64,000 nucleotides of DNA from Nitrospira japonica (GTDB lineage Bacteria > Nitrospirota > Thermodesulfovibrionia > Thermodesulfovibrionales > SM23-35): contig DYFC01000032.1 in NCBI GenBank assembly GCA_020725385.1, positions 32,001 to 96,000 on the forward strand, given 5' to 3'. The translations under genes were made by a program, and so were the position numbers. Position 1 is the first letter of the stretch; every line of letters begins with the position of its first letter. The notes under the pieces were generated by a model that had not been told where the DNA came from, ran no database searches, and worked only from the letters and a program-made list of their open reading frames with translations. Positions 4,880 to 23,326 of the stretch are shown here, in pieces.

Positions 4880-7540
4880 ATGAAGATTCATAATCTTTCC
4901 ATAGATGAAGTTTTCAAGAGTCTTGTAACTTCAGAAGATGGTCTTACCGAACAAGAGGCATTAAGTCGTTTTTCTGAATACGGTTCAAATGAGATTAAAG
5001 AAATAAAGAAAAAACCTTTATATATAAAGTTCCTATCCCAATTTACACATTTTCTGGCTATACTTCTTTGGCTTGCTGCTGTATTAAGTTTTTTGTCCGA
5101 ATATCTGCATCCGGGCGAGGGAATGCTTACACTCGGGATTGCGATTGTAGCTGTAATATTTATAAATGCTGTTTTTTCTTTTATACAGGAATATAAAGCT
5201 GAAAAAGCTCTCGAAGCTTTAAAAAAACTTCTGCCTTTTCATGTAAAAGTACTGAGAGACAGCAAAGAAAAAGAGATTTACGCAAGGGAAATTGTTCCCG
5301 GAGACATTATACTTCTTTCCGAAGGAGATAAGATTCCTGCGGATGCAAGATTAATAGAAGCTTCCGAGCTTAAAGTAAATAATGCTTCTCTTACAGGTGA
5401 ATCCGAGCCTGTTTTAAGAAACAACGAGCCATTTGCCGGAGAATTAATAAGAAGCCCGAACATTGTATTTGCCGGCACAACAGTTACAAACGGCTCAGGA
5501 AAGGCAGTAGTTTTTGCAACAGGCATGAGTACAGAATTCGGCCGCATCGCACATTTAACCGGTGCTGTGAGTTCGGGTCTCAGTCCTCTTCAAAAAGAGA
5601 TCATTAGAACGACAAGAATCCTCGCAACAATAGCTGCTTCTGTTGGCATATTCTTCTTCTTGCTCGGATTCGTAATAGGAAGAAGTTTCTGGCATAATTT
5701 TATCTTTGCGATTGGTATAACAGTCGCCCTTATCCCTGAAGGTTTGCTACCAACAATGACTTTGTCACTTGCTATGGCAAGCCAGAGAATGGCAAAAAGA
5801 AAAGCATTAATAAAAACTCTTACATCTGTCGAGACTCTCGGAGCTGTAACAGTTATCTGCACCGATAAAACAGGCACGCTCACACAAAATAAAATGTCAG
5901 CAGTGAAAATCTACTTTAACAATAAACTTGTTGATGTAAATGAATTAAAAGATGGCATGGCCTTTGAACTGCTCAGGGTTTCCTATTTTTGCAATAATGC
6001 CCGTTTTATAGATGGACAGTATAAAGGTGATCCTACAGAAATTGCTCTTTTAAAACTCGCAAAAGAAAGATTAGGAAATTTAAAAGTAAAACGTTTAAAA
6101 GAATTCCCTTTTGATCCTGATAGAAAAAGAATGACAACAGTTAATATGCTTGAAAATGAAATTATAGCTTTTACAAAGGGAGCGATAGAGGGTCTCCTTC
6201 CTTTATGTAGTAATTTCATTATTGATGGCAAAAAAATACCGTTTGATGAAAATTCAAGCAAATTAATAATGGATACTTGCCACAATATGATGGATACGGG
6301 ATTGAGAGTTCTCGCATTTGCATATAAAGATGCTGTAAATATCGAAAACTTTGACATAAATGAAATTGAAAATAACATGACATTCGCAGGATTGATAGGG
6401 CTTGAAGACCCGCCAAGACCAGAAGTAAAAGAAGCAATTAGAAAATGTAATGAAGCAGGAATAAAGATAATAATGATAACAGGTGATAGTAGTAGAACAG
6501 CAGTAGCTATCTCAAAAGAAATTGGTTTGATAAAAGGCGACCCGATAATAATTGAAGGATATGAATTCAATAAAATGTCTGATAAGGAATTAATAGAAAA
6601 ACTTCAGGCTAAAGAAATTATATTTACAAGAATGACACCGAAACACAAATTAAGGGTTGTTTCATTGCTCAAAGAAGAGGGCGAGATAGTTGCTGTAACA
6701 GGCGATGGAGTAAATGATGCTCCTGCTTTGAAAAAAGCTGATATTGGACTGGCAATGGGAATTACAGGCACAGATGTAGCAAAAGAAGCAGCGGATATTA
6801 TTTTGCTTGATGATAATTTTGCAACTATTGTTAATGCTGTTGAAGAAGGAAGGACTGTTTTTGACAATATAAAAAAATTTATAACTTATATATTTGCTTC
6901 AAATATCCCCGAAGCAGTTCCATATCTTGCTTATATATTGCTCAAAATACCTTTGCCTTTGACAATAATCCAGATACTTGCTGTTGATCTCGGAACAGAT
7001 ATGCTCCCTGCTCTTGCATTGGGCGCTGAAAAACCTTCACCTGATGTTATGAAACAGCCGCCGAGAAAGATGAAGAAAAGGCTTCTGGATTTTCCTTTAA
7101 TTCTCAGGTCATACCTTTTTCTTGGCCCAATCGAAGCAGCAGCATGTATGTTTGGTTTTTTCTGGGTTTTAAATCACGGTGGTTGGCTCTGGGGCACAAT
7201 GCTTGGTCCCAATAACACACTTTATCTTCAGGCTACAACAGCATGTTTGACTGCAATAATTATTACCCAGATAGGTAATGTATTTGCCTGCCGCTCTTCA
7301 AGATCGTCTATCTTCCATACAGATTTTTTTTCAAATAAACTTATATTTCTCGGGATTATGGTTGAAATTCTACTTCTTCTATTTATCGTTTACCATCCAT
7401 TCGGGAATAAAATATTCTTAACTGCTCCTATAAGTTTCGAGACATGGCTTGTACCTGTACCATTTAGCATCGCACTGTTAGTTTTGGAGGAATTGAGAAA
7501 ATTTTATGTACGAAGACAAAAACAAGAAAAATATATTTAA
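4880..7540 (+). CDS. Cation-transporting P-type ATPase (type II, Na/K- or Ca-like)
   Basis: TGES, PEGL, DKTGT phosphorylation site, KGA, DPPR, GDGVNDAPAL and DLGTD motifs. Confidence 0.95.
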   Translation: MKIHNLSIDEVFKSLVTSEDGLTEQEALSRFSEYGSNEIKEIKKKPLYIKFLSQFTHFLAILLWLAAVLSFLSEYLHPGEGMLTLGIAIVAVIFINAVFSFIQEYKAEKALEALKKLLPFHVKVLRDSKEKEIYAREIVPGDIILLSEGDKIPADARLIEASELKVNNASLTGESEPVLRNNEPFAGELIRSPNIVFAGTTVTNGSGKAVVFATGMSTEFGRIAHLTGAVSSGLSPLQKEIIRTTRILATIAASVGIFFFLLGFVIGRSFWHNFIFAIGITVALIPEGLLPTMTLSLAMASQRMAKRKALIKTLTSVETLGAVTVICTDKTGTLTQNKMSAVKIYFNNKLVDVNELKDGMAFELLRVSYFCNNARFIDGQYKGDPTEIALLKLAKERLGNLKVKRLKEFPFDPDRKRMTTVNMLENEIIAFTKGAIEGLLPLCSNFIIDGKKIPFDENSSKLIMDTCHNMMDTGLRVLAFAYKDAVNIENFDINEIENNMTFAGLIGLEDPPRPEVKEAIRKCNEAGIKIIMITGDSSRTAVAISKEIGLIKGDPIIIEGYEFNKMSDKELIEKLQAKEIIFTRMTPKHKLRVVSLLKEEGEIVAVTGDGVNDAPALKKADIGLAMGITGTDVAKEAADIILLDDNFATIVNAVEEGRTVFDNIKKFITYIFASNIPEAVPYLAYILLKIPLPLTIIQILAVDLGTDMLPALALGAEKPSPDVMKQPPRKMKKRLLDFPLILRSYLFLGPIEAAACMFGFFWVLNHGGWLWGTMLGPNNTLYLQATTACLTAIIITQIGNVFACRSSRSSIFHTDFFSNKLIFLGIMVEILLLLFIVYHPFGNKIFLTAPISFETWLVPVPFSIALLVLEELRKFYVRRQKQEKYI

Positions 7541-7566
7541 GAAAATACAGATGTTGCGAAAAATCC

Positions 7567-7589
7567 GTTATCCGTATTAAATACGGACA
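7567..7589. repeat. Short palindromic repeat, copy 1 (GTTATCCGTATTAAATACGGACA)
   Basis: Near-identical copy at 8066-8087; internal palindrome TCCGTATT/AATACGGA. Confidence 0.6.
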
Positions 7590-7745
7590 GGTGGAACGGT
7601 TTTTTCGTGCGATGCCTGCATTAACTGGGTTATTAAATGTTTTGACAAAAGAATTTATATTTAAGTATATTTTGTTAGTGTTTCAGATTTGAAGACATTT
7701 ATGATTACAATCAGACCTAATAGAACTTAGGGAGAGACATTCTAA

Positions 7746-7955
7746 ATGAGGAAGATTAAATATAGCAAAGATGTTGACACCCTTCTTATTGAACTTTCAG
7801 ATAGAAAAATAGACTATGCTGAAGAAGAAGGTCAAATAATTATACATTTTTCAAAAGATGGAGAACCGGTTCTTTTGGAGATATTAGATGCAAAAGACTT
7901 TTTACTCAATTCTCTCGCAAGTCTTGTAAAAGAAAAAGAAGTAGCAATACCTTAA
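7746..7955 (+). CDS. DUF2283 family small protein (putative antitoxin)
   Basis: IKYSKDVDTLLIEL...DGEPVLLEILDA pattern typical of DUF2283; GGAGA RBS. No intact partner toxin upstream. Confidence 0.7.
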   Translation: MRKIKYSKDVDTLLIELSDRKIDYAEEEGQIIIHFSKDGEPVLLEILDAKDFLLNSLASLVKEKEVAIP

Positions 7956-8065
7956 ATAACAAAAAACACAGACAACTATACATATTAACAGTTTACAGTT
8001 TACTTTTAACGCTTTACTTATTTACAGCTTTTCACGTTTTTCTTTTTTATACGTAAGCATTGTTT

Positions 8066-8091
8066 GTTACCCGTATAAATACGGACACGAT
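8066..8091. repeat. Short palindromic repeat, copy 2
   Basis: GTTACCCGTATAAATACGGACACGAT; its end is the reverse complement of ATCGTGTCCGTA at 27917. Confidence 0.55.
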
Positions 8092-8129
8092 GAATACAAT
8101 TATTTATTGCCGAGTTAATAATATATATA

Positions 8130-8490
8130 TTATTTTTGGAGGGTCTTTAAATATTCTAAAATTGCTTCTTTAAATCTATCAAAATCTCCAGGATATTTCT
8201 TTAGGATTGTAACAATTATTTCTGCATCTATCTGCTCATACTGGTGCACTAAAATATTCCTGAATTTTGACATCTTCTTAAGACTTATAAAAAGTTCTTC
8301 TCCGAATTTTATTTTCATATAAAATTTTAAATATATCTGCATAACTCCCAGGTGCTCTCATGTTTCCACATGAAATAATGTGCTTCGCAATATCAGCACA
8401 TGTCTCTATCATTATCTGCAAAGTCATCTCAATTATACGCTGTTTCTTCCAGTCTTCTTTATACTCTCTAACTGTTATCTCAGAATACTC
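8130..8490 (-). pseudogene. Frameshifted, N-truncated DUF86/HEPN RNase toxin
   Basis: EYSEITVREYKEDWKKQRIIEMTLQIMIETCADIAKHIIS...YADIFKILYENKI is in one frame; GEELFISLKKMSKFRNILVHQY (RX4H) is in another. Frameshift near 8305. Confidence 0.8.
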
Positions 8491-8666
8491 CTGTCCGTGT
8501 TCTGTAAATAAATAGCAATATCTACATCTGATAAATTTGTTTGACTACCGGATGCCATGCTTCCAAAAAGATATGCAAAAATAATATTATCCTCAGCTTC
8601 AATAACTTTTTTTACCTCATTAATAATCATCAGTCTATTTGATAATATAGGCCTAAATTTAATCAT
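8475..8666 (-). pseudogene. Truncated MNT (minimal nucleotidyltransferase) antitoxin
   Basis: AYLFGSMASG...SDVDIAI motif; only the N-terminal half remains and runs directly into the HEPN remnant. Confidence 0.75.
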
Positions 8667-8791
8667 GTTTAACTATTGCGTAGTAAATAAAAGTTGTCAA
8701 CTTTGAATTTTTCTTTATCGTTTTTATCTTGCCATTTATCAAAAGTATATAGCTGACACCTTTATTTTTATTTACCCGAAAGATGCAATTG

Positions 8792-8842
8792 GAGATGCTG
8801 AACCAACCCTGAAACAAGTTCATGGCATGGTTTATGATGACA
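8792..8842. repeat. Degenerate REP-like palindromic element (GATGCTGAA...CCTGAAACAAGTTCA...ATGAC)
   Basis: Nested imperfect hairpin ending in ATGAC, like the REP copies at 54408-54491. Confidence 0.45.
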
Positions 8843-9247
8843 ATTTTCGACCCTTTACGCATAAGCAATTTCACACTAACGGCACCAGGGTTAGGAAACC
8901 TAATCAGGGGTTTTTACAAGTGCTTGAATATACCACTTAAAAGCTTTTTAATCAAGTATTCCTGTTGGTTTCATAGTTGTATATAGTTTGATTTGTTTTG
9001 ATGTTTTTTGATATATTCATTTCACGATTTTTTCATGTGAAAAATTTAACAATCTAAGGTGTGCCTGCTGCGCCCGCCCGCCACTCCGCAGGCACGAGTT
9101 TTTCCATAGCCCCCGTCGCTCAGGCACTATGCTTGCGTTATCCCGCAAAAGCTGCGCCAGTCACTAAACTTGCTTTTTGACTGCAAGCAAGCCCGTGCCT
9201 TCGCTCCACCACCCTATAATAATATTGTGTTTAGTTCGGGTGATATG

Positions 9248-9532
9248 TCAGTTCCATGTTACATCTTGTTCATCATAAGCATCTTCCATTGCTTCAAGTA
9301 CTAACCGAAAAAATTCTGGATTTTCTCCAAGAAAATTAACAAGAAGTTCCGCTAAAACATAGGGTTCTTCCATCGAAAATAACCATATGTCTTTTTCAAA
9401 ATCACCGTTCATTAAAACGATAAAATTCTTTGCCTTCCCATTTTGTTCACCTCTTAATTTGCCCAGAACCTTTCCTGTAGAAAATAGTTCAAAGTTGATG
9501 TTATAAAGCTTTTTCTCTTTGTTCTTTATCAT
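9248..9532 (-). CDS. Hypothetical protein (94 aa, acidic C-terminus) downstream of SAM-I/IV riboswitch
   Basis: GGAGGT RBS 5 nt before ATG; no family recognised. Confidence 0.7.
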   Translation of the reverse strand: MIKNKEKKLYNINFELFSTGKVLGKLRGEQNGKAKNFIVLMNGDFEKDIWLFSMEEPYVLAELLVNFLGENPEFFRLVLEAMEDAYDEQDVTWN

Positions 9533-9673
9533 TTTTTACCTCCGATTTTTGTTTTCTTGAGTGGATTAAGGCTCTGCCTGATATTGTTTTATGGTGGTAG
9601 CTTGGATATAAGAGAAAATTGCGGTTTCATCGATGCAAGCACCTCCTTTTCGAGATGATTACATCAGGGCAAT

Positions 9674-9699
9674 AAAAAAACCGCCACATCAGGGCGGTT
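9674..9699 (-). terminator. Intrinsic terminator (riboswitch expression platform)
   Basis: AACCGCC-CTGATGT-GGCGGTT stem-loop running into a 7-T tract on the minus strand. Confidence 0.85.
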
Positions 9700-9707
9700 A
9701 GTTCATT

Positions 9708-9818
9708 TGGAGATCTTTTTTTCGGAAAACTCAGTCCGCACATCGAGTGGTTTCCCACTCAGGCACCGTAGCATCTCCACGCTCGGTTGCCGAATCCTCC
9801 TCGGATTGCTCCTGATGT
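9708..9818 (-). ncRNA. SAM-I/IV variant riboswitch
   Basis: Minus strand: P1 ACAUC/GAUGU; AUCAGGAG junction; short P2 AAUCC/GGAUU; P3 GGCAACCG/CGGUGCC; P4 GAGUGG-GAAA-CCACUC; P5 CGGA/UCCG; PK-2 between L3 UGGAGAU (9773-9779) and 3' AUCUCCA (9708-9714). Confidence 0.88.
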
Positions 9819-9824
9819 TATGTT

Positions 9825-9833
9825 ATTTTAACA
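9825..9833 (-). promoter_or_regulatory. Extended -10 promoter for the riboswitch transcript
   Basis: TG-T-TAAAAT lies 6 nt upstream of the first P1 base (9818). Confidence 0.55.
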
Positions 9834-10090
9834 TATTTCCATTCAGAAAAGCTTCAATATTTTTTTTGATTTTATCTTCTCTTTTGCCTTAATATATGCT
9901 TCGTTAGGTCTAATGGATTTGTAATGATAAGTAAATCTTTTAGAGAATCTTGTTTGAAATCTTAACTATGAAATTTTAAGTGCCCAAACCAATTGAAATG
10001 ATTTTTACTTTAAGACTTCCTCTTGTTAATTCGACAAATGTAAAGATTTATGATTGTTCTCTAAAAAGTTGTTGAATAAATAGACACACT

Positions 10091-10144
10091 GTCATTCCCC
10101 GATTTACCTGCCCACTGTTTTTGTGGCGGGATCGGGGAATCCAG
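10091..10144. repeat. REP-like palindrome with inserted hairpin
   Basis: GTCATTCCCCGAT...ATCGGGGAATCCAG, same family as 54408-54491. Confidence 0.7.
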
Positions 10145-10238
10145 TTTTAGCCTTATTACCGGTTACTGCGCCATGTCTTTTTAAAGTTTCAAGCATGCCC
10201 TCTGGTTTTACTGGAGGGTTGTGGTATGACAGAAACTT

Positions 10239-10313
10239 TGGATTCTCCGGTCAAGTAAGCCCACTGGCTTGCTTGACCGCCATTTGTTTGGCGGAACCGA
10301 AGGGCCAGAGAAT
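10239..10313. repeat. REP-like palindrome with nested hairpins
   Basis: TGGATTCTCCGGTCAAG...GCCAGAGAAT encloses additional stems (CAAGTAAGC/GCTTGCTTG, CCGCCA/TGGCGG). Confidence 0.55.
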
Positions 10314-10368
10314 TTCATTTTTAATCTCTCACTTTCACGTTCGTCTTTCACTCTGCCAAAGGCAGCCC
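10313..10368 (-). repeat. Truncated second copy of the array-embedded cassette end (stem arm + ATGAAA)
   Basis: Matches 10870-10926 with 2 substitutions and a 1-nt indel; abuts the terminal repeat in the same position. Confidence 0.9.
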
Positions 10369-10471
10369 GTCGCAGTCCTTTATTCATCAAGGCTTATTTT
10401 CTCTCTGACGAATTACTTAACGGTGAATTAAAAAAACGGATTGAAAGTCGCAGTCCTTTATTCATCAAGGC

Positions 10472-10926
10472 AGGCTGGCATGGCCAGAGTGAACGTTAAA
10501 AGTTGAAAGTGATAAAAATTATTTTTTCAATGAATCAATCATTTTACTAAGCATTGCTCGTATCTCCTGACAGGTTAATTCTCTCATTTCAAATATGTTG
10601 CTATCAATAAAATTTAATCGCTTTATCTTCTCATACCAGTCAATTGTCTCATTGGTTGAGCCCCTCGCAATATATAAATAATGTTCAAATTCTCTGCCTT
10701 TACGCCTTCCATATCCTTCAGCTATATTCGCTGTTATTGATGAGACACTTCTTAATACTTGATTCGCAATAATTCTGGCAACCTCTGTCTTTGGAAAAGT
10801 TTCAATGTCTTTTAAAACATCTTCAAATAATTTCATCCCTGCTTGCCATACCTTTAGCTCTCTAAAGTCTTTCATTTTTTAATCACTCACTTTCACTTTC
10901 GTCTTTCACTCTGCCAAAGGCAGCCC
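10472..10926 (-). mobile_element. IVS-like insertion cassette inside the CRISPR array
   Basis: Imperfect terminal inverted repeats at 10473-10518 and 10876-10925; flanked by a 25-bp direct duplication of the repeat 3' part; no transposase. Confidence 0.6.
10519..10875 (-). CDS. Four-helix bundle protein (TIGR02436 / 23S rRNA-IVS protein / Avd-like)
   Basis: FRELKVWQ...QVLRSVSSITANIAEGYGR...FEHYLYIARGSTNE family signature. Confidence 0.92.
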   Translation of the reverse strand: MKDFRELKVWQAGMKLFEDVLKDIETFPKTEVARIIANQVLRSVSSITANIAEGYGRRKGREFEHYLYIARGSTNETIDWYEKIKRLNFIDSNIFEMRELTCQEIRAMLSKMIDSLKK

Positions 10927-11354
10927 GTCGCAGTCCTTTATTCATCAAGGCTTATTTTCTCTCCCTACATACAGTTATCCAGTATTTCCAAAAGGGAATG
11001 CTAAGAAAGTCGCAGTCCTTTATTCATCAAGGCTTATTTTCTCTCATGTACTTGCAGAACTTACTGCTAATCCTACTCTTAGTCGCAGTCCTTTATTCAT
11101 CAAGGCTTATTTTCTCTCATTAAAAGTATAAATTTCTGCGGTCTGTTTTTGTTTTGTTATAAGTCGCAGTCCTTTATTCATCAAGGCTTATTTTCTCTCG
11201 TTTCAAAATTGTACGTGACTTTCATTGTTAATAACTCTGGGTCGCAGTCCTTTATTCATCAAGGCTTATTTTCTCTCGCATTCTGACGATCGATTCGTCT
11301 TTGCTCGTCGCAAGAAAGTCGCAGTCCTTTATTCATCAAGGCTTATTTTCTCTC

Positions 11355-11552
11355 CGCACCTCCATATTATTCAATAAAATCATGAAGTTAAAATGCTTAT
11401 TTCTGTAACATTGAGTTATCAACAACTTAATCATACATGAAAAGTTGGTTTTTCTATTTTCAAAGAACAAAAATATATTAATTTTCAATCTGTTAGCTTA
11501 TTTTCTGTAACCTTCTATATTTTTTATTATCCACAAAACTTCGTATAACTAC
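11355..11552 (-). promoter_or_regulatory. CRISPR leader with IHF-like sites
   Basis: AT-rich region between cas2 and first repeat. TATCAACAACTTA (11417-11429) is an exact WATCAANNNNTTR match; AATCATGAAGTTA (11378-11390) has one mismatch. Confidence 0.75.
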
Positions 11553-11825
11553 TTATAATATAAAGACATTTTTGTCTTTTGAGATTTCTCCTTTGCCAAA
11601 AACCTTTGCAACGCCCTCACACTTTGCACATAGTGCATATATTCTCACGCTGTCTTCGTCAGATACTATTCTTTCCAGCTTATTTATCATCTTCTGAAGT
11701 AGTTTATTGTCAAGAATACATTCGAATACACTATATTGTACTCTTGTGCCAAAGTCAAGCATAACTTTAGCAATTTTATCACGTTTCTTATCATCAGGAA
11801 TGTCATATGAAACAATATAAAACAT
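11553..11825 (-). CDS. cas2: CRISPR-associated endoribonuclease Cas2
   Basis: YIVSYDI...FGTRVQYSVFEC...DSVRIY. Confidence 0.97.
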   Translation of the reverse strand: MFYIVSYDIPDDKKRDKIAKVMLDFGTRVQYSVFECILDNKLLQKMINKLERIVSDEDSVRIYALCAKCEGVAKVFGKGEISKDKNVFIL

Positions 11826-11889
11826 TCTAACCTCAATCAGATAATAACCCTCTCTTATACCAAGAGGGAGAATTTATTTGACATTATTC

Positions 11890-12888
11890 TCATACCTGTA
11901 ACAAAAAAGGTGTATATGCTGAACCACCCTTAATATAATTTGCCAGCTTCTCTGCCTGAATCCTGAAACATTTTCTAAATGTTGTGTTTTCGCTTGTTTC
12001 GGGATGTTTGAATTCATTGGCAAAAAACCTTTCATATTCTTCAAAGTATCTTTTCATTGACTCTCTCTTAAGGTACATGCCTTCAGCTTTGGGATTAACA
12101 TAAAAATCATCTTTTTTAAATATGCCATAGTTAATAAGATATAAAGTAAATCTATCAATAACAGCCCTGAATTCTTCCTGTAAATCAGAGGCAAGTGAAG
12201 CTCTTCCATATTCGGCACTATGAAAATATCCAAGATACGGGTCGAAACCGAGGCCATCAAGTAATGACATAATTTCATTGAATACCAGCGTATAACCGAA
12301 GGATAAGAGTGCATTGACAGGATCGGTTGACGGGTGTTTTTTTCTTCCATTAAAAGTGAATTCCTTTAAAATCATTTTGCCAAAGGCTGTAAAATAAACC
12401 TTAGCAATTATACCCTCGATACCCATTAGAGAATTAATATCAATGCCTGTCACAATGCTGTCAAAGAACTTCTTCATCTCATTTGTTTCTCCTGAAAAGT
12501 CAATCTGTGGATGATTATAGGAAAAAGACCTGATAACGTTGAGACAATTTGTGATTTTTACTCTAAGAATAATTTTTGATAAATTCAATCTGAATTCTAT
12601 ATCCCAGTATTTTTTAAATTGTTCTATTCTTAATTCGATATTTTTTGTTGATGGAGACGTTATTTGACCGATGAGTCTCCCTGTTCTCGATAGAATGGCC
12701 ATTTCAATGCCATGTTCAAAAAGTTCATGAATTGCCTGAGTTGTAAACTGAACGTTGCCGAATATCATGACAGACTCAATCTTGTTGCAAGGAACATCAA
12801 GGAGCACATCGTTTTCCTTACGAACTATGAGTCTGTCCCCTGTTTTACAAAGAATTGCGCCCTGTTCGGTTATGTAAAGATTTGCCAT
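11890..12888 (-). CDS. cas1: CRISPR-associated integrase Cas1
   Basis: LYITEQGA, LMGIEG, DPVNALLSFGY, GYFH and LASDLQEEFR motifs. Confidence 0.97.
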   Translation of the reverse strand: MANLYITEQGAILCKTGDRLIVRKENDVLLDVPCNKIESVMIFGNVQFTTQAIHELFEHGIEMAILSRTGRLIGQITSPSTKNIELRIEQFKKYWDIEFRLNLSKIILRVKITNCLNVIRSFSYNHPQIDFSGETNEMKKFFDSIVTGIDINSLMGIEGIIAKVYFTAFGKMILKEFTFNGRKKHPSTDPVNALLSFGYTLVFNEIMSLLDGLGFDPYLGYFHSAEYGRASLASDLQEEFRAVIDRFTLYLINYGIFKKDDFYVNPKAEGMYLKRESMKRYFEEYERFFANEFKHPETSENTTFRKCFRIQAEKLANYIKGGSAYTPFLLQV

Positions 12889-13821
12889 CTACCAGCCTCT
12901 TTTTTTCTTAAGATAATATGCTTCCATATTCAAAGGCGGCGGGTAGTATAGAACCTTCCGCTCTCTTTTCGGTCTGTCAAACGGTACCATAATTAAGCTT
13001 TTTACAAAAGTAACGCCAAGATATTTGAAGCCTTGCTCAAAGCTAACAATATCGGATTCATCAAGTTTTAATAAAAGCCTGTCAAGAATTTCATTAGTAA
13101 ATTCAAGGGATTGTTTTGCTTTTTCAGGACTTTTGCATAGAACCAGAAAATCATCTGCATATCTCACATATCTTTGATTATTTTTTAGCATTGCTTCATC
13201 CAACTCATCAAGAAAAAGATTAGCAAGGACAGGAGACAAAGGCGATCCCTGAGGTATCCCTTTATCTATTATTTCTAAATTTTTTCCATCCCATACTTCG
13301 GATTTAACCCATAATTTTATAAGCATTTCAATGTGTTCATTATTAATATATTTGTGCACTTTTTGAAAAAGGAGTTCATGATTAACACTATCAAAAAAAG
13401 CATCAATATCAGCATCAATCACCCATTTATATCCTTCCTCATAATATTCCTTAATTTTGTAAACAGCATTTCTGACAGAACGCCCTTTTCTAAAAGCAAA
13501 ACTGCATTCCTCAAATTCTTTTTCGAGTAAAGGTTCAATAATATGCAAAACCAGAGTTTGTGCAACTCTATCGCGAACAGCAGGAACCGAAAGAGCTCTT
13601 GCTTCGCCATTACCCTTGTCCACAAGAATTTTAAGAAGCGGAAGAGGGAAATAGGTTTTTTGTCTCAATTCGTTCTCAAGCATTGCAAGATTTTTTGGCA
13701 GGTCATTCTCAAACTCTCCAATTGTTACCCCATCCACACCCGCACAACCATGGTTTTCCTTAACCTGAAAGAAGGCGGTGGAGAGAGAGTTATAATCCCA
13801 CTTTGTCAATTTCTGTAGCAT
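12889..13821 (-). CDS. CRISPR-associated reverse transcriptase (group II intron-like, no maturase/En domain)
   Basis: AGVDG, RALSVPAVRDRVAQ, DADIDAFFD, GIPQGSPLSP, RYADD and FKYLG motifs; immediately upstream of cas1. Confidence 0.95.
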   Translation of the reverse strand: MLQKLTKWDYNSLSTAFFQVKENHGCAGVDGVTIGEFENDLPKNLAMLENELRQKTYFPLPLLKILVDKGNGEARALSVPAVRDRVAQTLVLHIIEPLLEKEFEECSFAFRKGRSVRNAVYKIKEYYEEGYKWVIDADIDAFFDSVNHELLFQKVHKYINNEHIEMLIKLWVKSEVWDGKNLEIIDKGIPQGSPLSPVLANLFLDELDEAMLKNNQRYVRYADDFLVLCKSPEKAKQSLEFTNEILDRLLLKLDESDIVSFEQGFKYLGVTFVKSLIMVPFDRPKRERKVLYYPPPLNMEAYYLKKKRGW

Positions 13822-14569
13822 TTATCCACAGTCTCTCAAAATTATTTTTAAAAGCATCAAAAGGGCTCGTAAACCGCTCATTCTTTCCTATTACAAGAAC
13901 CGGTGAATCACTCCCGCGTTTTCCTTTTTCGAGAATTCCAATATAAGCTTTTCTATCATCAATTAAATACATCCACCATGGAATAAATTCACTATAAAGC
14001 TTTATATTTATCCGCCCTTCCTTATAAGGAATTGTGTTTTTTAGTATAGATATTGCTCCTCTGATTCTTTTACTTGTTGCCTCTACTGCTTCATCAATAA
14101 CTTTTTTTGCATCAGCAGAAAGACTTTCCAGCTTAACATTAAGGTCATGCCCTTTTTGATAGGCTTCCTGTCTTTTTAAGGATTCGGAATCAGGATTCAT
14201 GAGAAGTATTCTATAACTTGCAATGGGATTTTTTTCAATCCATCTTCTGAAGTGTTCTAAAATTGAATCAGAGCTAATTCCAAGATAGCAAAATGAATTT
14301 CTTGCTTCCTGCCAGACTTTCGGGTTTTCATTGAGGTCAAAGCTGTAATAATACCCTGCATTTGCTGAAAGTAAAAGCTTTATCATTCTCTCATACTTTT
14401 TCCAGATCCAGAAGGAAAACAAAACTGTCAGGATGATACAAAATGAAAATATTCCGAGCCAAAGTTTTCCTGAAAAAATACCGACCAAAGCTCCTCCTGC
14501 TATACCAGAAATGAAGTTGATGAATAGGTCGCGGAAAAAGAGTTTCGGGCTAAGAAAATGCTCTGACAT
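13790..14569 (-). CDS. Membrane protein: two N-terminal TM helices + DUF5919-like (degenerate PLD-like) domain
   Basis: Hydrophobic residues ~16-56, then LGIS, RILLMNPDS, IKLY...P, IDD, G.DSP and FERLW..A pattern. Family assignment is from recollection of the pattern. Confidence 0.6.
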   Translation of the reverse strand: MSEHFLSPKLFFRDLFINFISGIAGGALVGIFSGKLWLGIFSFCIILTVLFSFWIWKKYERMIKLLLSANAGYYYSFDLNENPKVWQEARNSFCYLGISSDSILEHFRRWIEKNPIASYRILLMNPDSESLKRQEAYQKGHDLNVKLESLSADAKKVIDEAVEATSKRIRGAISILKNTIPYKEGRINIKLYSEFIPWWMYLIDDRKAYIGILEKGKRGSDSPVLVIGKNERFTSPFDAFKNNFERLWINATEIDKVGL

Positions 14570-14571
14570 TT

Positions 14572-15510
14572 TTACTCCTTTACCAATATTCCATAATGCC
14601 CGATAGTTAGAGTATTATCTTCAGTCTCCTCTAAAATTGACCCAGGCATCCAGCAGATAATAGCATCACTGATTTTTTGTCCGGAACCGATCTTCTTATT
14701 CCCTTTACTATCCTGTATTTCACCCCATTCTCGTCCAACCAGAGGTTCGATGTCACCTTTTAGATTCAAACTGCTATTAATAGGTAAATGAGCTGGTATT
14801 GGTTTGTTTTTTGTAATTTTGATTTTCTTTTCTCCCGAAACAATCTCATGCTCAAAAAAGTTATTATCAATGACTTCTCCTGTTTTTTCATTATCCAGAA
14901 TAAGTCGCCCCCAACCATATTTCCTGTCTCCACCGACAAATATCTCAGAAAATATTTCTTTAAGTCTTATGTCTTTGCTACCATTCCATCCTACAGATTT
15001 TGTATTTACTGTTGCACTTTCTTCTATAAATATATACCCGACAAAGTAAACAGGCATTTGATTTTTTGTATCTTCGTCCTCGATTATAGGCGCAATAAAT
15101 TCTGATTCGTGCAATGATTCATCTTCGGCAGTATTGCTTTCGGGCAGAACAGCGGTTTGGCCATAAGATTTGATAAAAAGACGTTCAAATTCAGAGGCAG
15201 AATAATCTCCATAGTATAGTCCTTTACCGGTATATTCAGGCATTAATAGCTTAAGCTCATCATTTTGAAAAAGCGCAGGGTAAAAGTAGCTAATAAAAAT
15301 ACTTTTGTTTAATAATTCTTCTCCATATATTTTATAATTTGTTGTGTCTTTTATAGACCCATCTGCTCTTGCCAGATTATCTGTAAAAGACGCCCACATA
15401 TTCTTACCTGTAATGTAGTAACGTGTGAGTTTTATATACCCGAGCGTATGCCAGCCAATATGTACATGGCTTTTTGCCTGATAAACCAGTCTATAAGCTT
15501 TCCAGCCCAT
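14572..15510 (-). CDS. cmr3: Type III-C Cas5-group RAMP (Cmr3-like)
   Basis: YRLVYQAKSHVHIG N-terminus, GGDRKYGWG glycine loop, position after cmr5. Confidence 0.7.
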   Translation of the reverse strand: MGWKAYRLVYQAKSHVHIGWHTLGYIKLTRYYITGKNMWASFTDNLARADGSIKDTTNYKIYGEELLNKSIFISYFYPALFQNDELKLLMPEYTGKGLYYGDYSASEFERLFIKSYGQTAVLPESNTAEDESLHESEFIAPIIEDEDTKNQMPVYFVGYIFIEESATVNTKSVGWNGSKDIRLKEIFSEIFVGGDRKYGWGRLILDNEKTGEVIDNNFFEHEIVSGEKKIKITKNKPIPAHLPINSSLNLKGDIEPLVGREWGEIQDSKGNKKIGSGQKISDAIICWMPGSILEETEDNTLTIGHYGILVKE

Positions 15511-15890
15511 TAGTCACTACTCCCTTCTGCAACGGGTTCCTGAGCTTGTTCTACTTTAGCCTTAGCCTTTGCATGATAGCGGGCATAAACAAGCGTACGC
15601 TCAAGGAGTTCTTTGGCGAAGAGAAGATGATCGAGATTATCCTTTAATTTATTTCTTATTGCCTGAAGCGGTTCAACTTCGTCTTGAAGAATGTTTTTCA
15701 TAATCACTTCTTCTTTTAGAAAATTAAACGATTCTTCTTGAATTTTTACTGCCTTCGATGCACACCATAAGAAAAAAGCATATACGCCGTCTTCCTGAAG
15801 AACGCCAAGAGATTTTCGAATTATATCTTCACTTGCAGATTGTCCAATCTTATATCCAAACTCAGCACATTTCAAATCAAGTATTTCCAT
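15510..15890 (-). CDS. cmr5: Type III small subunit Cmr5-like
   Basis: 126-aa helical protein with LGVLQEDGVYAFFLW and LERTLVYARYHAKA, between cmr4 and cmr3. Confidence 0.8.
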   Translation of the reverse strand: MEILDLKCAEFGYKIGQSASEDIIRKSLGVLQEDGVYAFFLWCASKAVKIQEESFNFLKEEVIMKNILQDEVEPLQAIRNKLKDNLDHLLFAKELLERTLVYARYHAKAKAKVEQAQEPVAEGSSD

Positions 15891-15893
15891 ATC

Positions 15894-17030
15894 TTATCCT
15901 CCTATGTTGAGGACTTTTAGCCGTCCCATTCCTCTTGTACCCATTCCTCCGATGCCCAGTGACTCAAAATAGTTAAGCCCCTTTTCTACATTAAATGCAA
16001 TAAAACCAATTTGTTCATTATCATCAACTGCTGGATTTTTTAAGGGGTTTTGATAACTTGCCGGTTTTTCTAAATTGATTGGCTTGCTACCTTCTATTCT
16101 GAAATACCCCGGGTTGTTGTAAACAACGTCAAACCACATCACGGTCGCTCTTGGAATTGCTTCATATGTATAGAGAGCTCTATCTTCAGCAGCACCAGTG
16201 GCAGGGTCAATGGCAACAGATGTACGAACTTCAAGGTTATCGTTGACAATGCGTGAGAAGAGTTTGTCAGAGACAAGCAGAAGACGACTTTTTATTTCAG
16301 CCGGAACATCGTCAAATACAGCTGGCAAGCTTAAATCAGCCCCGTCATCCTTTTCTAACATCAGCCATCCAAAGTTGAGCTTGTTCTGGACGCCAAGGCC
16401 AAAGCTTTTGAATTTGTCATCCGATGATATTGACACCGATAACCCATGCTCACTTAACACGCGGGGGGATGTTACCCACACCGGCCCGATCATTGAATGA
16501 ACAGGGAAAAATAGAATTCTTGCATCGTAGAATTGTGCAAGCCCCTGAAAACTTGAGCCGCTTTTACCCTTTGAAAATCCAAAAGGAATACATACCTCGC
16601 AATCAGGTCTTCCGCAATGCCCTTCTCCATCATCAGCACCTTTGCCCGCACAGCTGTAATATTTTGGTTCAAGGGGATTATCATTATCATAAAATGGTTT
16701 ATTGTTTGATACATCAAAAGTTATTATGGCTTTGTCACCTTCAATTTTTGATACTTTATAAAGAGGCCTCTGGTATTTCCATTTAAGATATTTTTTATAA
16801 TCAATCTTGAAATCTGCTTCTATTGCAGTTTGATTTTCACTCTGTACTGCCATTGCGGTATATGCCCTTGCAACCCCGGCAATGCTTGAGCCGGGTATTT
16901 TGGGAAGATTTGTTCCTGGCTCTCTGGTGATTGTATTATCTACTCTCCCGAGCCTGTATCCGCCTGTGCCGATATGCACAGGGTCAAGAGTTAAAGCAAA
17001 ATAAGTCTTCTTTTCGAAAGGTTTACTCAT
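15894..17030 (-). CDS. cmr4: Type III RAMP Cmr4 (Cas7 group)
   Basis: DPVHIGTG...VDNTITRE (catalytic Asp present), KIPGSSIAG, YTYEAIP, GIGGMGTRGMG. ATG at 17030 preferred. Confidence 0.93.
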   Translation of the reverse strand: MSKPFEKKTYFALTLDPVHIGTGGYRLGRVDNTITREPGTNLPKIPGSSIAGVARAYTAMAVQSENQTAIEADFKIDYKKYLKWKYQRPLYKVSKIEGDKAIITFDVSNNKPFYDNDNPLEPKYYSCAGKGADDGEGHCGRPDCEVCIPFGFSKGKSGSSFQGLAQFYDARILFFPVHSMIGPVWVTSPRVLSEHGLSVSISSDDKFKSFGLGVQNKLNFGWLMLEKDDGADLSLPAVFDDVPAEIKSRLLLVSDKLFSRIVNDNLEVRTSVAIDPATGAAEDRALYTYEAIPRATVMWFDVVYNNPGYFRIEGSKPINLEKPASYQNPLKNPAVDDNEQIGFIAFNVEKGLNYFESLGIGGMGTRGMGRLKVLNIGG

Positions 17031-17031
17031 A

Positions 17032-20000
17032 CTACACACCTCCTTTATTTTGTTCATCTATTCTTTCCTTCAATATGCCAGGATAAAGCTCAAGCGTATC
17101 AAAAAATAAACCATTATCAATGGTTTCAAGAAGCAAACTCTGCTGCTTATCATCAACTTTAAATTCTTTTTGAATTGAAGCAGTTATGAGACTTATCCAT
17201 ATCTGATAACTATCCGAGGTTTTATCTTCTAAACTTACTCCCCATTCCTTATACTTTGTTAACCAGAGGGACTGCAAATCTCTAAGTTTGGTATCTGTTA
17301 TCCCCTCAAGCTGTTTTCCTTTTAAAAGTTCATCCCAAATGTACATTATCTTTTGGCTCAATTCATCAAGTAAAAATGGCTTTGATTTGAAATCACCCAC
17401 ATTGGATTTGCGTCTGTTATCTTTATTAAGGTGTATATCATGCCTTCTCGTATTACAGTCAAGAAATTCAAAATCATAGTAATTGGGGTAAACCCTTACT
17501 TTGTAGCCACTTTTAAGATCGGAAATATGAACAAGGTCACCCATAAAACTTTTTACAAAAGAAGCTTCTTCTTTATGTGTATCTCCTTCACTGCTTTTTT
17601 TGACCATATATGGATGAAAATAGTCTTCCTTACACATGCCCAAATTGTAATTTATATCCCATGATATATTTTGCTTGTCGAAGGTTATTTTTGTTTTACA
17701 ATCTTCGTTCTTGACGTCCTTAATAGTCCATGTATTTTTGCTTTTTTCCTTCCAGTAATCTTTATTCAAATTCTCAAAGTTCTTAAGCATTCTTTTACCA
17801 GAGTCGAGTATGACAAACATGGGAACTTTTTTATGAAAGAAGATATTTCCTATATTAAAAGAAAGCCTTCCTATGACCTTTCCGAAATATTCTTTATACT
17901 GGGAATATATATAATCTGAGATAGGTATGGCTTTATCAGCTGGAACTATAGCCATCATAATGTCAGGTGTTGTTGTAATAACTCTGAGCGGATAAATTTC
18001 TTTATCATCTATTAACACTTCCCTGATAGTTGTTTCCTGTATTTCATTTTTCTCTTTTTCAAATTCCGATGCCTTGATTCTTATTAGCTTTCCTTCCCAT
18101 TCCTGCCTTTTAACCTCAAAATCTGTTTCTTTATATCCTTCATTCACCACAAAAATGTTATCTCCAGCCCTGTAAATATCTATTTTTATCCCATTTATTT
18201 CAGCTTCATAAATAGCATTTTCCAACTGCAATTGACCAGAATTTTTAAGCTTTAGTTTTAATCTCCTGAAAGGTGCAATGAGTTTTTTATTTTCAAGTGT
18301 CCTCAAATCAAACAGATTCTCAAGGAACTTCCTTGTGGTATTCCAAACATTCAGCAAACGAGATGGAGTATGATTTTTTGTAAGCAAAAAATTGCATAGG
18401 TTAGGTTTATTTCCAAATCTTTTTTCTATTTCAAGCTTCTTATCAATGTTCTTTATCCAATCTTTTATTTTCTGCCAGTTTTCAGGCAGTTGCAGTTCTT
18501 TTCTATGTTTGTCGAATAAATATGATATAGCCTTTAAAAAGTCTTTTTCCTTATTGGTTATAGGTGATTTTCCATCTATTGCTTTATTGATCCTATCAAT
18601 CCACTCACTTATTTTTTCATAATTTATTACAATATCTTTACCTTCATTTTTTTCAATTATGTCCTTACGATTTTTATCATTTTCTTTAAAATCATTAATT
18701 TTTTCGAGATGTTGAATTGCTTCTTTAATGCTTTTTGCTTCTTTTACAAAAAGACTCCACAACATATCGCCACTCAACCATGGTTCAAGTGAAAATTTTG
18801 CAACAATAAGAGCCAGTTTGCCATTTTTATCAGCTATCTCATCACTAAAGATGCTATGGCAGTCGTTTCTTTGCTTTTGTTCCCAAATTCTTCTTTCCTT
18901 ACAGATATTACAGACACTATACTGTGTTGATATAGAAGGTCTCTTGCGGCATACACTGCAAATGGTCTTCTCTTTGACATTATCCCATTGTCTCATCCAT
19001 GATAGTTTATGATTTAACCTTTGATAGGGATATTTGCTTTTTTCTGATATTCTCTTGATAGTATGAACAATCTCCATAACAAAATTTGTCTCTTGCATAT
19101 CTGAAATATCAGTAAATACAGGCTGAATTTCTCCGCCTGTAATTTCATCCGCAGCATCATCAACCACTGTTTTTATTTCTGATAAAAGTTTTATATATTC
19201 AGATGCGGATTCTCTTATTGCCGGGGCTATGAAATATATACCATTATCATCGTCGTAAATATTTGCACATATAGGATATTGATATTCGCAGATTTGTTTT
19301 ATTTTCTCCTTTAAGAGCTTGATTGTTCTTTTTTTAGCAACAATATCGCCGATCTTTTGCCCATCCGATATAAAGGCCATGCCATCCCAGCCAAAACCAA
19401 TAAGGGAGAATTTGGCCCTGTCAAGACTTTGTATCTTTTCGCCGTAAATTAGAAAATGATTAAAAAAGACCTTTGAGAGCGCTGCTGTAACATAGGAATG
19501 CTGCCATAATGTTATATCATTTGCAGGCCTGTTTGTATCAGTCAGTGCAAAATTAAAAGCTTCTTCAACAGCCTTAAATATTTCTATCCTTTCCTTATAA
19601 TGAAAGCTATCAAGATATTTAGGAAGCATATAGTTCAATTTGTTGTATAAAATTTTTCTGATATTATCAAAATCTTCTACGTTCAAAAGGGTCTCATAGC
19701 CAAATACTGTTGAGCCAAATGTCTGCTCTGTAGTTTGCTCCATTACCATAAGAGGATTGTTCCGGTCATCCCTTGTATCAACTGCATCTCCAAGTTTTAA
19801 AAACTGCGCTATTTCATCTTTCGGTTTTGTATGTTGGTACATCAGGTTTTTTAATGAAATTACCGTATTTATCTGAAAACCGCTTCTATATATATTTGTG
19901 CTCCCGGCATAAGAACTGATTTTCTTATTAAGGCATTCGTTGAGGGGTCTCAAATATTCATTGCTTAATAAATTGTCTTTGTCAAAGAAATTATCCTCAT

Positions 20001-20148
20001 GAGGGTCATTCATCCCTGTTTTCTTCTGCCACCTTCTCCGATAATATATGAATTCGGATGAAAGCTTTCCTGTATCGTGCAATAAACCTGCTAACTCCAA
20101 AATGAAAATCAGTCTTTTGTTTTTTTCAATATTTTCTATCAATGACAT
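17032..20148 (-). CDS. cas10: Cas10, type III-C (Csx11/MTH326-like): HD motif present, no GGDD cyclase motif
   Basis: LAGLLHDTGK; DTNRPANDITLWQHSY; CSVC...CNIC Zn finger; PSRL; GGDD position apparently replaced by TTPD; YPNYYDFEFLD. Confidence 0.88.
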   Translation of the reverse strand: MSLIENIEKNKRLIFILELAGLLHDTGKLSSEFIYYRRRWQKKTGMNDPHEDNFFDKDNLLSNEYLRPLNECLNKKISSYAGSTNIYRSGFQINTVISLKNLMYQHTKPKDEIAQFLKLGDAVDTRDDRNNPLMVMEQTTEQTFGSTVFGYETLLNVEDFDNIRKILYNKLNYMLPKYLDSFHYKERIEIFKAVEEAFNFALTDTNRPANDITLWQHSYVTAALSKVFFNHFLIYGEKIQSLDRAKFSLIGFGWDGMAFISDGQKIGDIVAKKRTIKLLKEKIKQICEYQYPICANIYDDDNGIYFIAPAIRESASEYIKLLSEIKTVVDDAADEITGGEIQPVFTDISDMQETNFVMEIVHTIKRISEKSKYPYQRLNHKLSWMRQWDNVKEKTICSVCRKRPSISTQYSVCNICKERRIWEQKQRNDCHSIFSDEIADKNGKLALIVAKFSLEPWLSGDMLWSLFVKEAKSIKEAIQHLEKINDFKENDKNRKDIIEKNEGKDIVINYEKISEWIDRINKAIDGKSPITNKEKDFLKAISYLFDKHRKELQLPENWQKIKDWIKNIDKKLEIEKRFGNKPNLCNFLLTKNHTPSRLLNVWNTTRKFLENLFDLRTLENKKLIAPFRRLKLKLKNSGQLQLENAIYEAEINGIKIDIYRAGDNIFVVNEGYKETDFEVKRQEWEGKLIRIKASEFEKEKNEIQETTIREVLIDDKEIYPLRVITTTPDIMMAIVPADKAIPISDYIYSQYKEYFGKVIGRLSFNIGNIFFHKKVPMFVILDSGKRMLKNFENLNKDYWKEKSKNTWTIKDVKNEDCKTKITFDKQNISWDINYNLGMCKEDYFHPYMVKKSSEGDTHKEEASFVKSFMGDLVHISDLKSGYKVRVYPNYYDFEFLDCNTRRHDIHLNKDNRRKSNVGDFKSKPFLLDELSQKIMYIWDELLKGKQLEGITDTKLRDLQSLWLTKYKEWGVSLEDKTSDSYQIWISLITASIQKEFKVDDKQQSLLLETIDNGLFFDTLELYPGILKERIDEQNKGGV

Positions 20149-20161
20149 AACATTACCCCTA

Positions 20162-22540: not shown

Positions 22541-22750
22541 ACAATTCAAAATTCAAGATTCAATATTCAAGAATCGGAAGAAAGACCACAGAATTATATT
22601 CTCTTTCGTCTATCTCTATCCTGCCTCCGATAAGAATAAATTCAATATGCAAAATTCAAAACCTCAAATTTATGATTCAAAACCGGCAGATTTAAAATTC
22701 AAAAAACTAATCCCGCTCATTCCTGAATCTTGAATTTTGAATCTTGAATT
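22541..22750. repeat. Heptamer-periodic tracts (TTCAAAA/TTCAAGA) in both orientations, downstream of four-helix gene 2
   Basis: Examples: AATTCAAAATTCAAGATTCAATATTCAAG at ~22543 and TGAATCTTGAATTTTGAATCTTGAATT at ~22724. Confidence 0.8.
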
Positions 22751-23190: not shown

Positions 23191-23326
23191 TAAAACTCAA
23201 GATTCAAGATTTAATATTCAAAACTTAAAGCTCGAAACTCAAGGCCAAACCTTAAACATGAAATTCAACATTTAAAAATCAAATTAGGAACCGGTATCTT
23301 GAATTTTGAGTTTTGAATTTTGAATG
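23191..23326. repeat. Heptamer-periodic tracts upstream of four-helix gene 2 and in the cas6 3' end
   Basis: AACTCAAGATTCAAGATTTAATATTCAAAACTTAAAG... and inverted TCTTGAATTTTGAGTTTTGAATTTTGAAT. Confidence 0.8.

Follow-up and report, generated by a model that had tools for sequence, protein, structure and literature searches.

A CRISPR array of Nitrospira japonica (GCA_020725385.1) is interrupted by a protein-coding cassette made up of a left arm (LE), an open reading frame (ORF) for a 118-amino-acid (aa) protein of the PF05635 family and a right arm (RE), which is preceded by a complete CRISPR repeat and followed by a partial one. The array lies on the minus strand of a 64,000-nucleotide (nt) stretch of contig DYFC01000032.1 (positions 32,001-96,000 of the forward strand; hereafter the window), and cassettes of the same layout occur elsewhere in this genome, in other genomes and in metagenomes. 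Our favored interpretation, to which we assign a probability of about 0.6, is that gene cassettes of the intervening-sequence (IVS) type have adapted to CRISPR arrays, where they would be co-transcribed with the repeats, freed by Cas6 and maintained as array-preserving commensals or parasites, not as helpers of a reverse transcriptase (RT).

Structure of the array-embedded cassette

The array comprises seven complete, regularly placed 37-nt repeats with unique spacers of 36-45 nt (40, 41, 44, 36, 45 and 41 nt for spacers 1 to 6), and the presence of adjoining cas1, cas2, cas6 and effector genes identifies the locus as a type III CRISPR locus (Table 1). The insert separates repeat 6 from a partial repeat, 24 nt of which are unambiguous and the 25th nt of which, a G, is common to the insert end. 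Cutting out 10447-10926 in silico places repeat 6 directly before spacer 6 and yields a regular array, as the preliminary description of this DNA had predicted for the deletion of the insert plus one 25-nt copy; its coordinates for the repeats, insert, partial repeat and spacers likewise hold on the sequence. Mis-assembly at the junctions, raised there as a concern, is very unlikely, because contigs from three independent studies (runs X1, X3 and X5) span 10447-10951 or 10447-10927 with 2-6 differences and hold the cassette bounded by a repeat segment on both sides. A joint skipping the cassette (i.e., an empty repeat 6) is not listed in four sequencing runs, and runs X3 and X5 do not cover spacers 1-5; neither observation is used as evidence.

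The two arms are complementary, which bears out the inverted-repeat brackets proposed earlier. The LE:RE RNA duplex reaches -45.4 kcal/mol, compared with -18.9 ± 4.1 kcal/mol for 200 mononucleotide shuffles of the right arm, none of which match it. In the minimum free energy fold of 10440-10970, the LE:RE stem closes the cassette and both repeat hairpins are formed (z = -2.96); none of 100 shuffles attains a comparable fold. Complementarity between LE and RE was present in all ten cassettes measured, seven of which were unreached by any of 200 shuffles, while in the remaining three 2-5 of 200 shuffles reached the observed pairing. Because motifs are shared among the arms within a subfamily, a cross-pairing matrix of the arms does not test covariation cleanly. 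Within LE, a GC hairpin (stem CTGCC/GGCAG) at +4 is followed by short GTGAAAG-type repeats, and a hairpin at +3/+4 past the repeat is found in 13 of 15 cassettes with at least six different stem sequences, a divergence that indicates covariation. The ORF and its arms travel together: which arm motif is present (GTGAAAG-type, GTGAATTAG-type and others) depends on the protein subclade, in arrays and between ordinary genes alike. At two cyanobacterial plasmid loci (L162 and L163), PF05635 genes are flanked by long tandem heptamers (AGCTAAA-type; CAGGTGA/CAGGGAA-type), not by short arms. It seems that arms composed of short repeats are characteristic of the PF05635 family in general.

The sole ORF of the 455-nt insert codes the PF05635 protein, and no integrase, recombinase or transposase gene is present. 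The protein is a clear member of the family (E = 4.9e-28, 97.9 bits against a curated cut-off of 33.8), with profile matches to 2rld and 2gsc at E of about 1e-13. The intact four-helix ORF of the preliminary description was thereby recovered: the AlphaFold2 model consists of four helices with a mean predicted local distance difference test score (pLDDT) of 94.3. The closest solved structures retrieved with Foldseek are Xcc0516 (2GSC; template modeling (TM) score 0.88-0.91) and BT_0352 (2RLD; TM 0.79-0.83), and the suggested likeness to Avd of diversity-generating retroelements (DGRs) also stands at the level of predicted structure (4DWL and 8UBE; TM 0.80), at 9-10% identity. The conserved PF05635 motif R-x3-S-x3-N-x2-E is quoted with a leading G in the open-access text of PMC3936711. 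Across 10 array-embedded members, S46, N50 and E53 of this motif are invariant and R42 is nearly so; the leading G is missing from the window protein. The ratio of non-synonymous to synonymous substitution rates (dN/dS) was 0.09, 0.12 and 0.14 in the three of eight relative pairs with unsaturated dS, and in the other five, whose dS is saturated, the proportion of non-synonymous differences (pN) was 0.09-0.20 compared with 0.78-0.91 for synonymous ones (pS). These comparisons show purifying selection on the cassette ORF.

On its minus strand, the cassette holds no terminator-like site and only one promoter-like site, which lies inside the ORF; the total number of sites (5) is within chance (4.9 ± 1.9 in shuffles). 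No promoter was called on the minus strand of the presumed leader (11355-11552). An Rfam scan of 7000-12500 (E ≤ 1) returned nothing significant on the cassette, where a thermometer family scored E = 0.67 (22 bits vs 88).

The array also ends in the remnant of an older cassette. A second LE copy after repeat 7 (10318-10368) has 2 mismatches to LE and is 98% identical over 88 nt when the repeat is included (family D1), and downstream of it come the first two codons of the ORF and then palindromic elements resembling repetitive extragenic palindromes (REP) or miniature inverted-repeat transposable elements (MITEs). These elements, with cores such as CTTGACCGGAGAATCCA and inverted partners, are intergenic and found in many places (54 approximate genome matches of one 17-nt core), and pieces of the cluster occur in other contexts in other metagenome runs. 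The palindromic cluster has overwritten the remainder of the older trailer cassette. A structured RNA gene was considered for the GC-rich stretch after repeat 7 and rejected, as this stretch consists of REP/MITE-like repeats and has no Rfam match.

Recurrence and mobility of the cassettes

The same layout was found at 28 loci, in 12 genomes and on 12 metagenome contigs, and in at least five repeat families whose tags end in GCGAC, GCAAC, GAAAC or GAAAG, so that the one-off accident envisaged in the preliminary description fails as an account of the window. Four of the loci belong to the N. japonica genome itself (the window, contigs C4 and C27, and a remnant on contig C9), and 12 lie in 11 other genomes, which extend to a different order of the class and to a third lineage within the phylum. 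Most of these genomes are fragmented metagenome-assembled genomes (MAGs) with contigs breaking in arrays.

Four of the eight PF05635 matches in the N. japonica genome lie in an array or a cas operon, and all three recognizable arrays of the assembly carry a cassette or a remnant. The second array, on contig C4, shows a full repeat, LE with its hairpin, the ORF, RE and a 24-nt degenerate partial repeat. A third, orphan array on contig C9 (35906-36650, L166) has eight repeats of a third family and no cas genes within 12 kb upstream; a decayed cassette, in which only the final ~25 codons of the ORF survive, interrupts the last repeat 6 nt short of its end. The cassette on contig C27 sits in degenerate repeats of this third family. 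A 25-nt direct repeat at C27 was considered as a non-CRISPR target duplication and rejected, being a degenerate third-family CRISPR repeat plus the end of another RE; no clean empty site for the C27 flanks was found in the family search.

Among 201 genomes of the same order, the eight best non-self matches to the window protein (42-79% identity) all lie in arrays, whereas the other 21 loci examined do not. A profile search across the phylum (401 genomes) yielded two further genomes, one belonging to a different order and the other more distant. The complete genome G006 has two arrays, which together contain a decayed ORF, a partial repeat of 13 nt and three ORF-less miniatures that are nearly identical. 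These two arrays (L160 and L161) have a leader and a trailer that are identical between them, and each trailer contains a PF05635 gene of a second type, TAA-broken in both copies, followed by the apparent 3' part of another repeat type. From the best 80 of 584 metagenome-contig relatives, 13 loci were array-embedded on inspection, one of them a near-duplicate; a strict script rule flagged 10 of the 13 and one false positive (L124). A search of genome contigs with a two-row alignment gave only two weak loci, and no relatives were found in viral contigs. The plasmid search returned nine cyanobacterial records, and of the four inspected none was array-embedded and two placed the gene between cas6 and cas4.

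Position and orientation are consistent across the embedded cassettes. All embedded ORFs are co-oriented with the repeat (i.e., in the CRISPR RNA (crRNA) sense), no antisense embedded ORF being found among the 30 + 80 loci screened. In the main lineage, LE follows the repeat with no base in between. The partial repeat begins at the 5' base of the repeat hairpin, a start that is the same in many lineages; it measures 22-26 nt in most of them and 10-13 nt in one, and a few trailer copies lack it. By our tally, it is intact in all six cassettes with a further spacer downstream and in 4 of 11 that end their array, a pattern that fits either selection for downstream crRNA processing or simple trailer decay.

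ORF-less miniatures (LE and RE, ~115-190 nt) and tandem copies are frequent in arrays, and the miniatures stand beside or replace full cassettes (L032, L033, L035, L036, L079, L080, L082, L084, L086, L088, L089 and G006). Two subclades of the IVS protein (IVP), ~50% identical, each occur in the same two repeat variants, and a hybrid or variant repeat is found on only one side of the cassette at L032, L039, L086, L095 and in G006; together these patterns suggest movement between arrays. The downstream 24-25-nt segment differs from the local repeat in L032 and G006, and so may be carried along or fossil instead of being made on insertion. In run X5, a population variant joins the partial repeat straight to LE-type sequence, its short side being only 29 nt, which reflects either the loss of spacer 6 and repeat 7 or a tandem. 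On the protein tree, embedded members need fewer label changes than any of 500 shuffles, and the starred subclade that contains the window protein has 10 rows, of which eight are embedded, one is probably so and one is at a contig edge.

Close relatives with the same arms are also found between ordinary genes, in transfer RNA (tRNA) clusters and after rpmG. On metagenome contigs L094, L101, L107 and L122, PF05635 cassettes with arms lie between tRNA genes, and on L122 two partial copies of a tRNA 5' half, each with an LE-type hairpin, precede the complete tRNA. On L097 a cassette follows rpmG. The tRNA-cluster and rpmG sites suggest that, in general, members of the family are carried on transcripts that are processed or highly expressed. 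A further PF05635 gene of the N. japonica genome (C31:122668-122976, L021) lies between what appear, on a by-eye reading of the flanks, to be the end of hsdS and the start of hsdR in a type I restriction system.

A proposed Cas6-released cassette and competing explanations

Under the favored reading, the cassette unit (LE, PF05635 ORF, RE) would be closed as a long stem by its complementary arms and, being devoid of its own promoter or terminator, would be transcribed from the leader within the pre-crRNA. Cleavage by Cas6 falls 8 nt from the 3' end of the repeat. The Cas6 of the locus would thus cut at the hairpin base in repeat 6 and again in the partial repeat, releasing an RNA of ~480 nt with a 5' tag and a 3' hairpin, and the crRNAs of spacers 5 and 6 would still be made. 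The closing stem and the conserved GC hairpin after the tag may hold or protect the RNA ends; the stem could offer a further RNase III site, as in ribosomal RNA (rRNA), and the hairpin may prevent the tag-bearing RNA from entering the type III effector. The ORF would then be translated, its product being selected at the protein level. At the DNA level, the cassette would be a duplicating, horizontally moving element that uses repeats as landing or recombination sites. A Campbell-type crossover (with a circle or a donor array) or gene conversion via the 24-25-nt segment would yield exactly the order of full repeat, cassette and partial repeat, and decayed and ORF-less copies would accumulate at the trailer end. 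This crossover scheme is a model that our data do not distinguish from integrase-type cutting at the repeat-spacer boundary or another transposition route.

Several observations weigh against this interpretation. Co-transcription, the Cas6 and RNase III cuts and translation are all deduced, the cutting position is assumed for this PF10040-type enzyme, and some Cas6 enzymes also need the 5' part of the repeat, which is missing from the partial one. At L034, L035, L089 and in G006 the partial repeat measures just 10-13 nt, and L079 and L093 have none, implying that it is not an obligatory Cas6 site; in two other repeat families the junction falls within the tag, by 3-6 nt. No clear Shine-Dalgarno sequence precedes the window ORF. 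The cassette contains no recombinase or transposase and no empty/filled polymorphism at one repeat was seen, leaving the DNA-level route a model. By our tally, ~14 of ~20 cassettes with both ends visible lie at the trailer end, a location that fits old vertical residents as well as mobility. The 28 loci are relatives of one another, so that the counts are not independent events, and the tree (FastTree, 111 proteins, 127 columns) leaves 44 of 108 inner branches unresolved. Finally, the strong concentration of PF05635 genes in CRISPR-Cas loci (four of the eight matches in this genome) fits a function in CRISPR biology equally well.

A bolder version of the Cas6-release reading, which we offer tentatively and consider distinctly short of even odds as a whole, is that arrays host dedicated 'CRISPR intervening sequences' that code for proteins. 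Cas6 would mature the mRNA of these elements, with the tag at its 5' end and the Cas6 hairpin at its 3' end, and the four-helix-bundle protein, as a pentamer, would recognize the heptamer-like repeats in the arms of its own cassette. The Cas6-cut RNA, with its 5'-OH and cyclic-phosphate ends, might be ligated to a circle, rebuilding the 24-nt segment, and be copied back into a repeat; cutting by Cas1-Cas2 at the repeat-spacer boundary would be an alternative route of spread. PF05635 cassettes would then be general elements of processed transcripts (rRNA, tRNA clusters and CRISPR arrays).

We regard as rather unlikely, although the genomic neighborhood speaks for it, the explanation that the cassette is a domesticated CRISPR accessory whose protein acts with Cas6, in crRNA maturation or in adaptation, and whose location in or beside the array couples its expression to that of the array. 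Besides the four PF05635 matches of this genome in arrays or the cas operon, cas6 is directly followed by a PF05635 gene both in the window and on two cyanobacterial plasmids with type I-D loci (Pseudanabaena galeata CCNP1313 pPg_01 and Anabaena sp. 90 pANA02), and another lies between cas2 and cas1 in genome G038. The purifying selection on the ORF, the ties of a whole protein clade to arrays and the neighborhood links in the open-access texts of PMC3936711 (18 genes in cas loci) and PMC10910872 (Fig. 6B) are in line with such a role. In contrast, ORF-less miniatures and decayed ORFs are common in arrays, the cassette is present in only 9 of the 35 genomes that hold this repeat family, and one carrier is the orphan array with no cas genes nearby. 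Close relatives whose arms are the same but which lie among ordinary genes, within tRNA clusters or behind rpmG also argue against an accessory, as do family members in 23S rRNA (PMC4990558) and in restriction-modification operons.

Insertion of the cassette DNA by the Cas1-Cas2 integrase as a giant spacer, the downstream repeat being trimmed later, appears to us improbable. Such an event would explain the exact repeat-spacer boundary, given that the left junction lies at the last repeat base in the main lineage; the integrase duplicates repeats, and a miniature at L084 sits spacer-like between two full repeats. However, the inserts of 115-510 nt are far above the known length ruler of the integrase, the partial repeat starts at the same position in many lineages, which is unlike random trimming, most insertions lie at the trailer and not the leader end, and the same cassettes occur outside arrays. 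As this explanation concerns only the DNA step, it is compatible with the RNA-level part of the favored reading.

The preliminary description had proposed that the cassette encodes an accessory for an adjacent RT-Cas1, and a specific form of this, in which the protein binds the neighboring RT as Avd binds the DGR RT and aids the uptake of spacers from RNA, we judge very improbable. It draws on the fold likeness to Avd as seen in the DGR RT complex, and on the RT and Cas1 that adjoin the array in the window and on metagenome contig L082 (in the order RT, Cas1, array, cassette). To compare occurrence, the repeat family was scored as present at ≥ 4 matches of a 14-nt pattern, which gave 35 of the 201 same-order genomes, with a reversed-pattern control reaching ≥ 4 matches in one genome. 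An RT homologue (E ≤ 1e-30; MAGs are incomplete and some RTs were possibly missed) was found in 2 of 9 cassette-bearing genomes, a count that includes decayed ORFs, compared with 5 of 26 that have the repeat family without the cassette. A tenth genome, G025, has a junction-pattern match. At L080, type III repeat-associated mysterious protein (RAMP) genes are present with no RT in the 3.9 kb upstream of the array. From these RT counts and L080, we conclude that the cassette does not track the RT. The proposed role is thus not supported, cassettes being present in the orphan array and other repeat families as well, and the identity to Avd is low.

A single chance insertion or a chimeric assembly at the repeats, conceivable for a 71-contig assembly given that arrays are hard to assemble, is ruled out by the 27 further loci of the same layout and the contigs of three studies with the cassette between the same repeat segments, and the ORF is intact and under selection.

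Relation to described systems and the surrounding locus

The closest known counterparts are the 23S rRNA IVSs of Leptospira, Coxiella and the Xanthomonas group, whose stem-closed, RNase III-excised inserts defined the PF05635 family (PMC4990558). Both types encode the same protein family, have complementary ends that form a closing stem, and lie inside a processed non-coding host transcript whose function survives the insertion; sizes are also similar (428-444 nt in Coxiella, PMC4990558, compared with 456-510 nt for array cassettes). In contrast, the host of the array cassette is the pre-crRNA and not helix 25 or 45 of 23S rRNA, the location by which IVSs are defined, and because one flank is a complete CRISPR repeat and the other a partial one, excision would naturally fall to Cas6, instead of or besides RNase III. 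Array cassettes further differ in their arms of 7-9-nt short repeats, their ORF-less miniatures and their tandem copies, and excision is here a deduction.

Links between PF05635 and CRISPR-Cas have been published. Zhang, Doak and Ye (2014) list 18 PF05635 genes in cas loci, often with cas4 or cas6 (PMC3936711), and Altae-Tran et al. (2023) include '23S rRNA IVP' among novel associations of the adaptation module (Fig. 6B, PMC10910872). Those genes resemble the second copy in the window and the copies on the two cyanobacterial plasmids, which lie next to cas6. They are placed among cas genes, whereas array cassettes, the partial repeat, arms and miniatures are not described in the open-access texts of these papers, the supplements of which may list cases. 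The earlier statement that no such system had been described therefore stands only in part: IVP genes in cas loci were already known, but we found no description of an array-embedded PF05635 cassette, its partial repeat or its miniatures in the open-access literature, supplements excluded. What is new is the host RNA in which this IVS-type cassette lies and the enzyme presumed to excise it.

Other comparisons are more distant. Phage PhiAP1.1 of Streptococcus pyogenes integrates into CRISPR repeats (bioRxiv 10.1101/2020.10.09.333658) and, according to the preprint, resembles the cassette as a mobile element that uses a CRISPR repeat, any repeat of the array, as its attachment site and carries repeat-identical sequence. 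Unlike the cassette, it is a complete phage that brings its own integrase, has a core of 8 bp and causes the array to split and erode. The cassette is only ~0.5 kb long, lacks a recombinase gene, has a 24-25-nt duplicated segment and a sense orientation, and apparently keeps the array functional. MITEs and insertion sequence (IS) elements in CRISPR-Cas loci likewise end in imperfect inverted repeats, are flanked by a direct repeat and have non-autonomous miniatures, whereas the cassette has no transposase and its duplicated segment is a defined functional part of the repeat. The sequences of its arms differ widely while complementarity is kept, which points to pairing and not to a transposase binding site. 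With regard to DGR Avd, the shared fold is set against the low identity and the lack of RT co-occurrence, and the RT of the window is group-II-intron-like and lies beside cas1.

If the favored reading is right, the window would contain a natural protein-coding gene within a CRISPR array that is released by the crRNA-processing enzyme, giving Cas6 a role in mRNA maturation. It would provide a testable handle on PF05635/IVS proteins, the function of which has been obscure since the 1990s, as cassettes riding on processed transcripts, and would explain the published statistical links between PF05635 and CRISPR loci. For annotation, the consequence is that array finders will break up such arrays or cut them short, and will overlook spacers lying past the cassette. 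Cas6-processed polycistronic designs in which guides are combined with genes would also have a natural precedent in this layout.

Table 1 Features of the array, the cassette and the cas locus (window positions).
Feature	Positions	Strand	Remarks
Palindromic REP/MITE-like element cluster	10100-10311 (or 10317)	.	genome-wide family
Second LE copy and ATGAAA	10312-10368	-	older-cassette remnant at trailer end, after repeat 7
Repeat 7	10369-10405	-	complete, last of array
Spacer 6	10406-10446	-	41 nt
Partial repeat	10447-10471	-	last 25 nt of repeat: CCTT/AAGG hairpin and 8-nt ACTGCGAC tag
Insert	10472-10926	-	455 nt, between repeat 6 and partial repeat
Right arm (RE)	10472-10518	-	47 nt, imperfect inverse of LE
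118-aa ORF	10519-10875	-	PF05635 (23S rRNA IVP), four-helix bundle
Left arm (LE)	10876-10926	-	51 nt, begins at first base past repeat tag
Repeat 6	10927-10963	-	full 37 nt, cassette starts directly after
Repeats 1-5 and spacers 1-5	10964-11354	-	leader-proximal array part
Full repeats 1-5	11318-11354, 11241-11277, 11163-11199, 11082-11118, 11009-11045	-	
Presumed leader	11355-11552	-	~200 nt between cas2 and repeat 1; presumed from position only
cas2	11553-11825	-	
cas1	11890-12888	-	
RT	12889-13821	-	group-II-intron-like
Type III effector genes	13790-22445	-	Cmr4/Cmr6/Cmr1-like RAMPs, three family-less ORFs and large subunit
Large subunit	17032-20148	-	Csx11-type
Second PF05635 gene	22707-23183	-	between cas6 and first RAMP gene; own TTCAAAATTCAAGAT-type arms
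Cas6	23284-24288	-	first gene of cas operon; PF10040, E = 2.6e-18

The gene set upstream of the array, with Cas6, RAMPs and a Csx11-type large subunit, we take to be a type III-D-like system. The RT and Cas1 pointed out in the preliminary description do lie beside the array, but as two ORFs in the same frame parted by one in-frame TAG (12886-12894, minus strand) and not as a fusion. Relatives in the same order have open frames of ~700-760 aa that span RT and Cas1, suggesting that the window pair is a split gene, a recent stop or a read-through fusion. The second PF05635 gene has a weak match to the bAvd Pfam family (E = 3.4e-4, under the cut-off).

Two further features lie downstream of the array on the minus strand. 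A GC-rich, structured-looking stretch at 9060-9245 stands out amid AT-rich sequence and has no Rfam match at E ≤ 1. At 9707-9823, an S-adenosylmethionine (SAM)-I/IV riboswitch match exceeds the gathering score (52.4 bits vs 41.1) and is followed downstream by a hairpin with a T-run and a 94-aa ORF (9248-9532).

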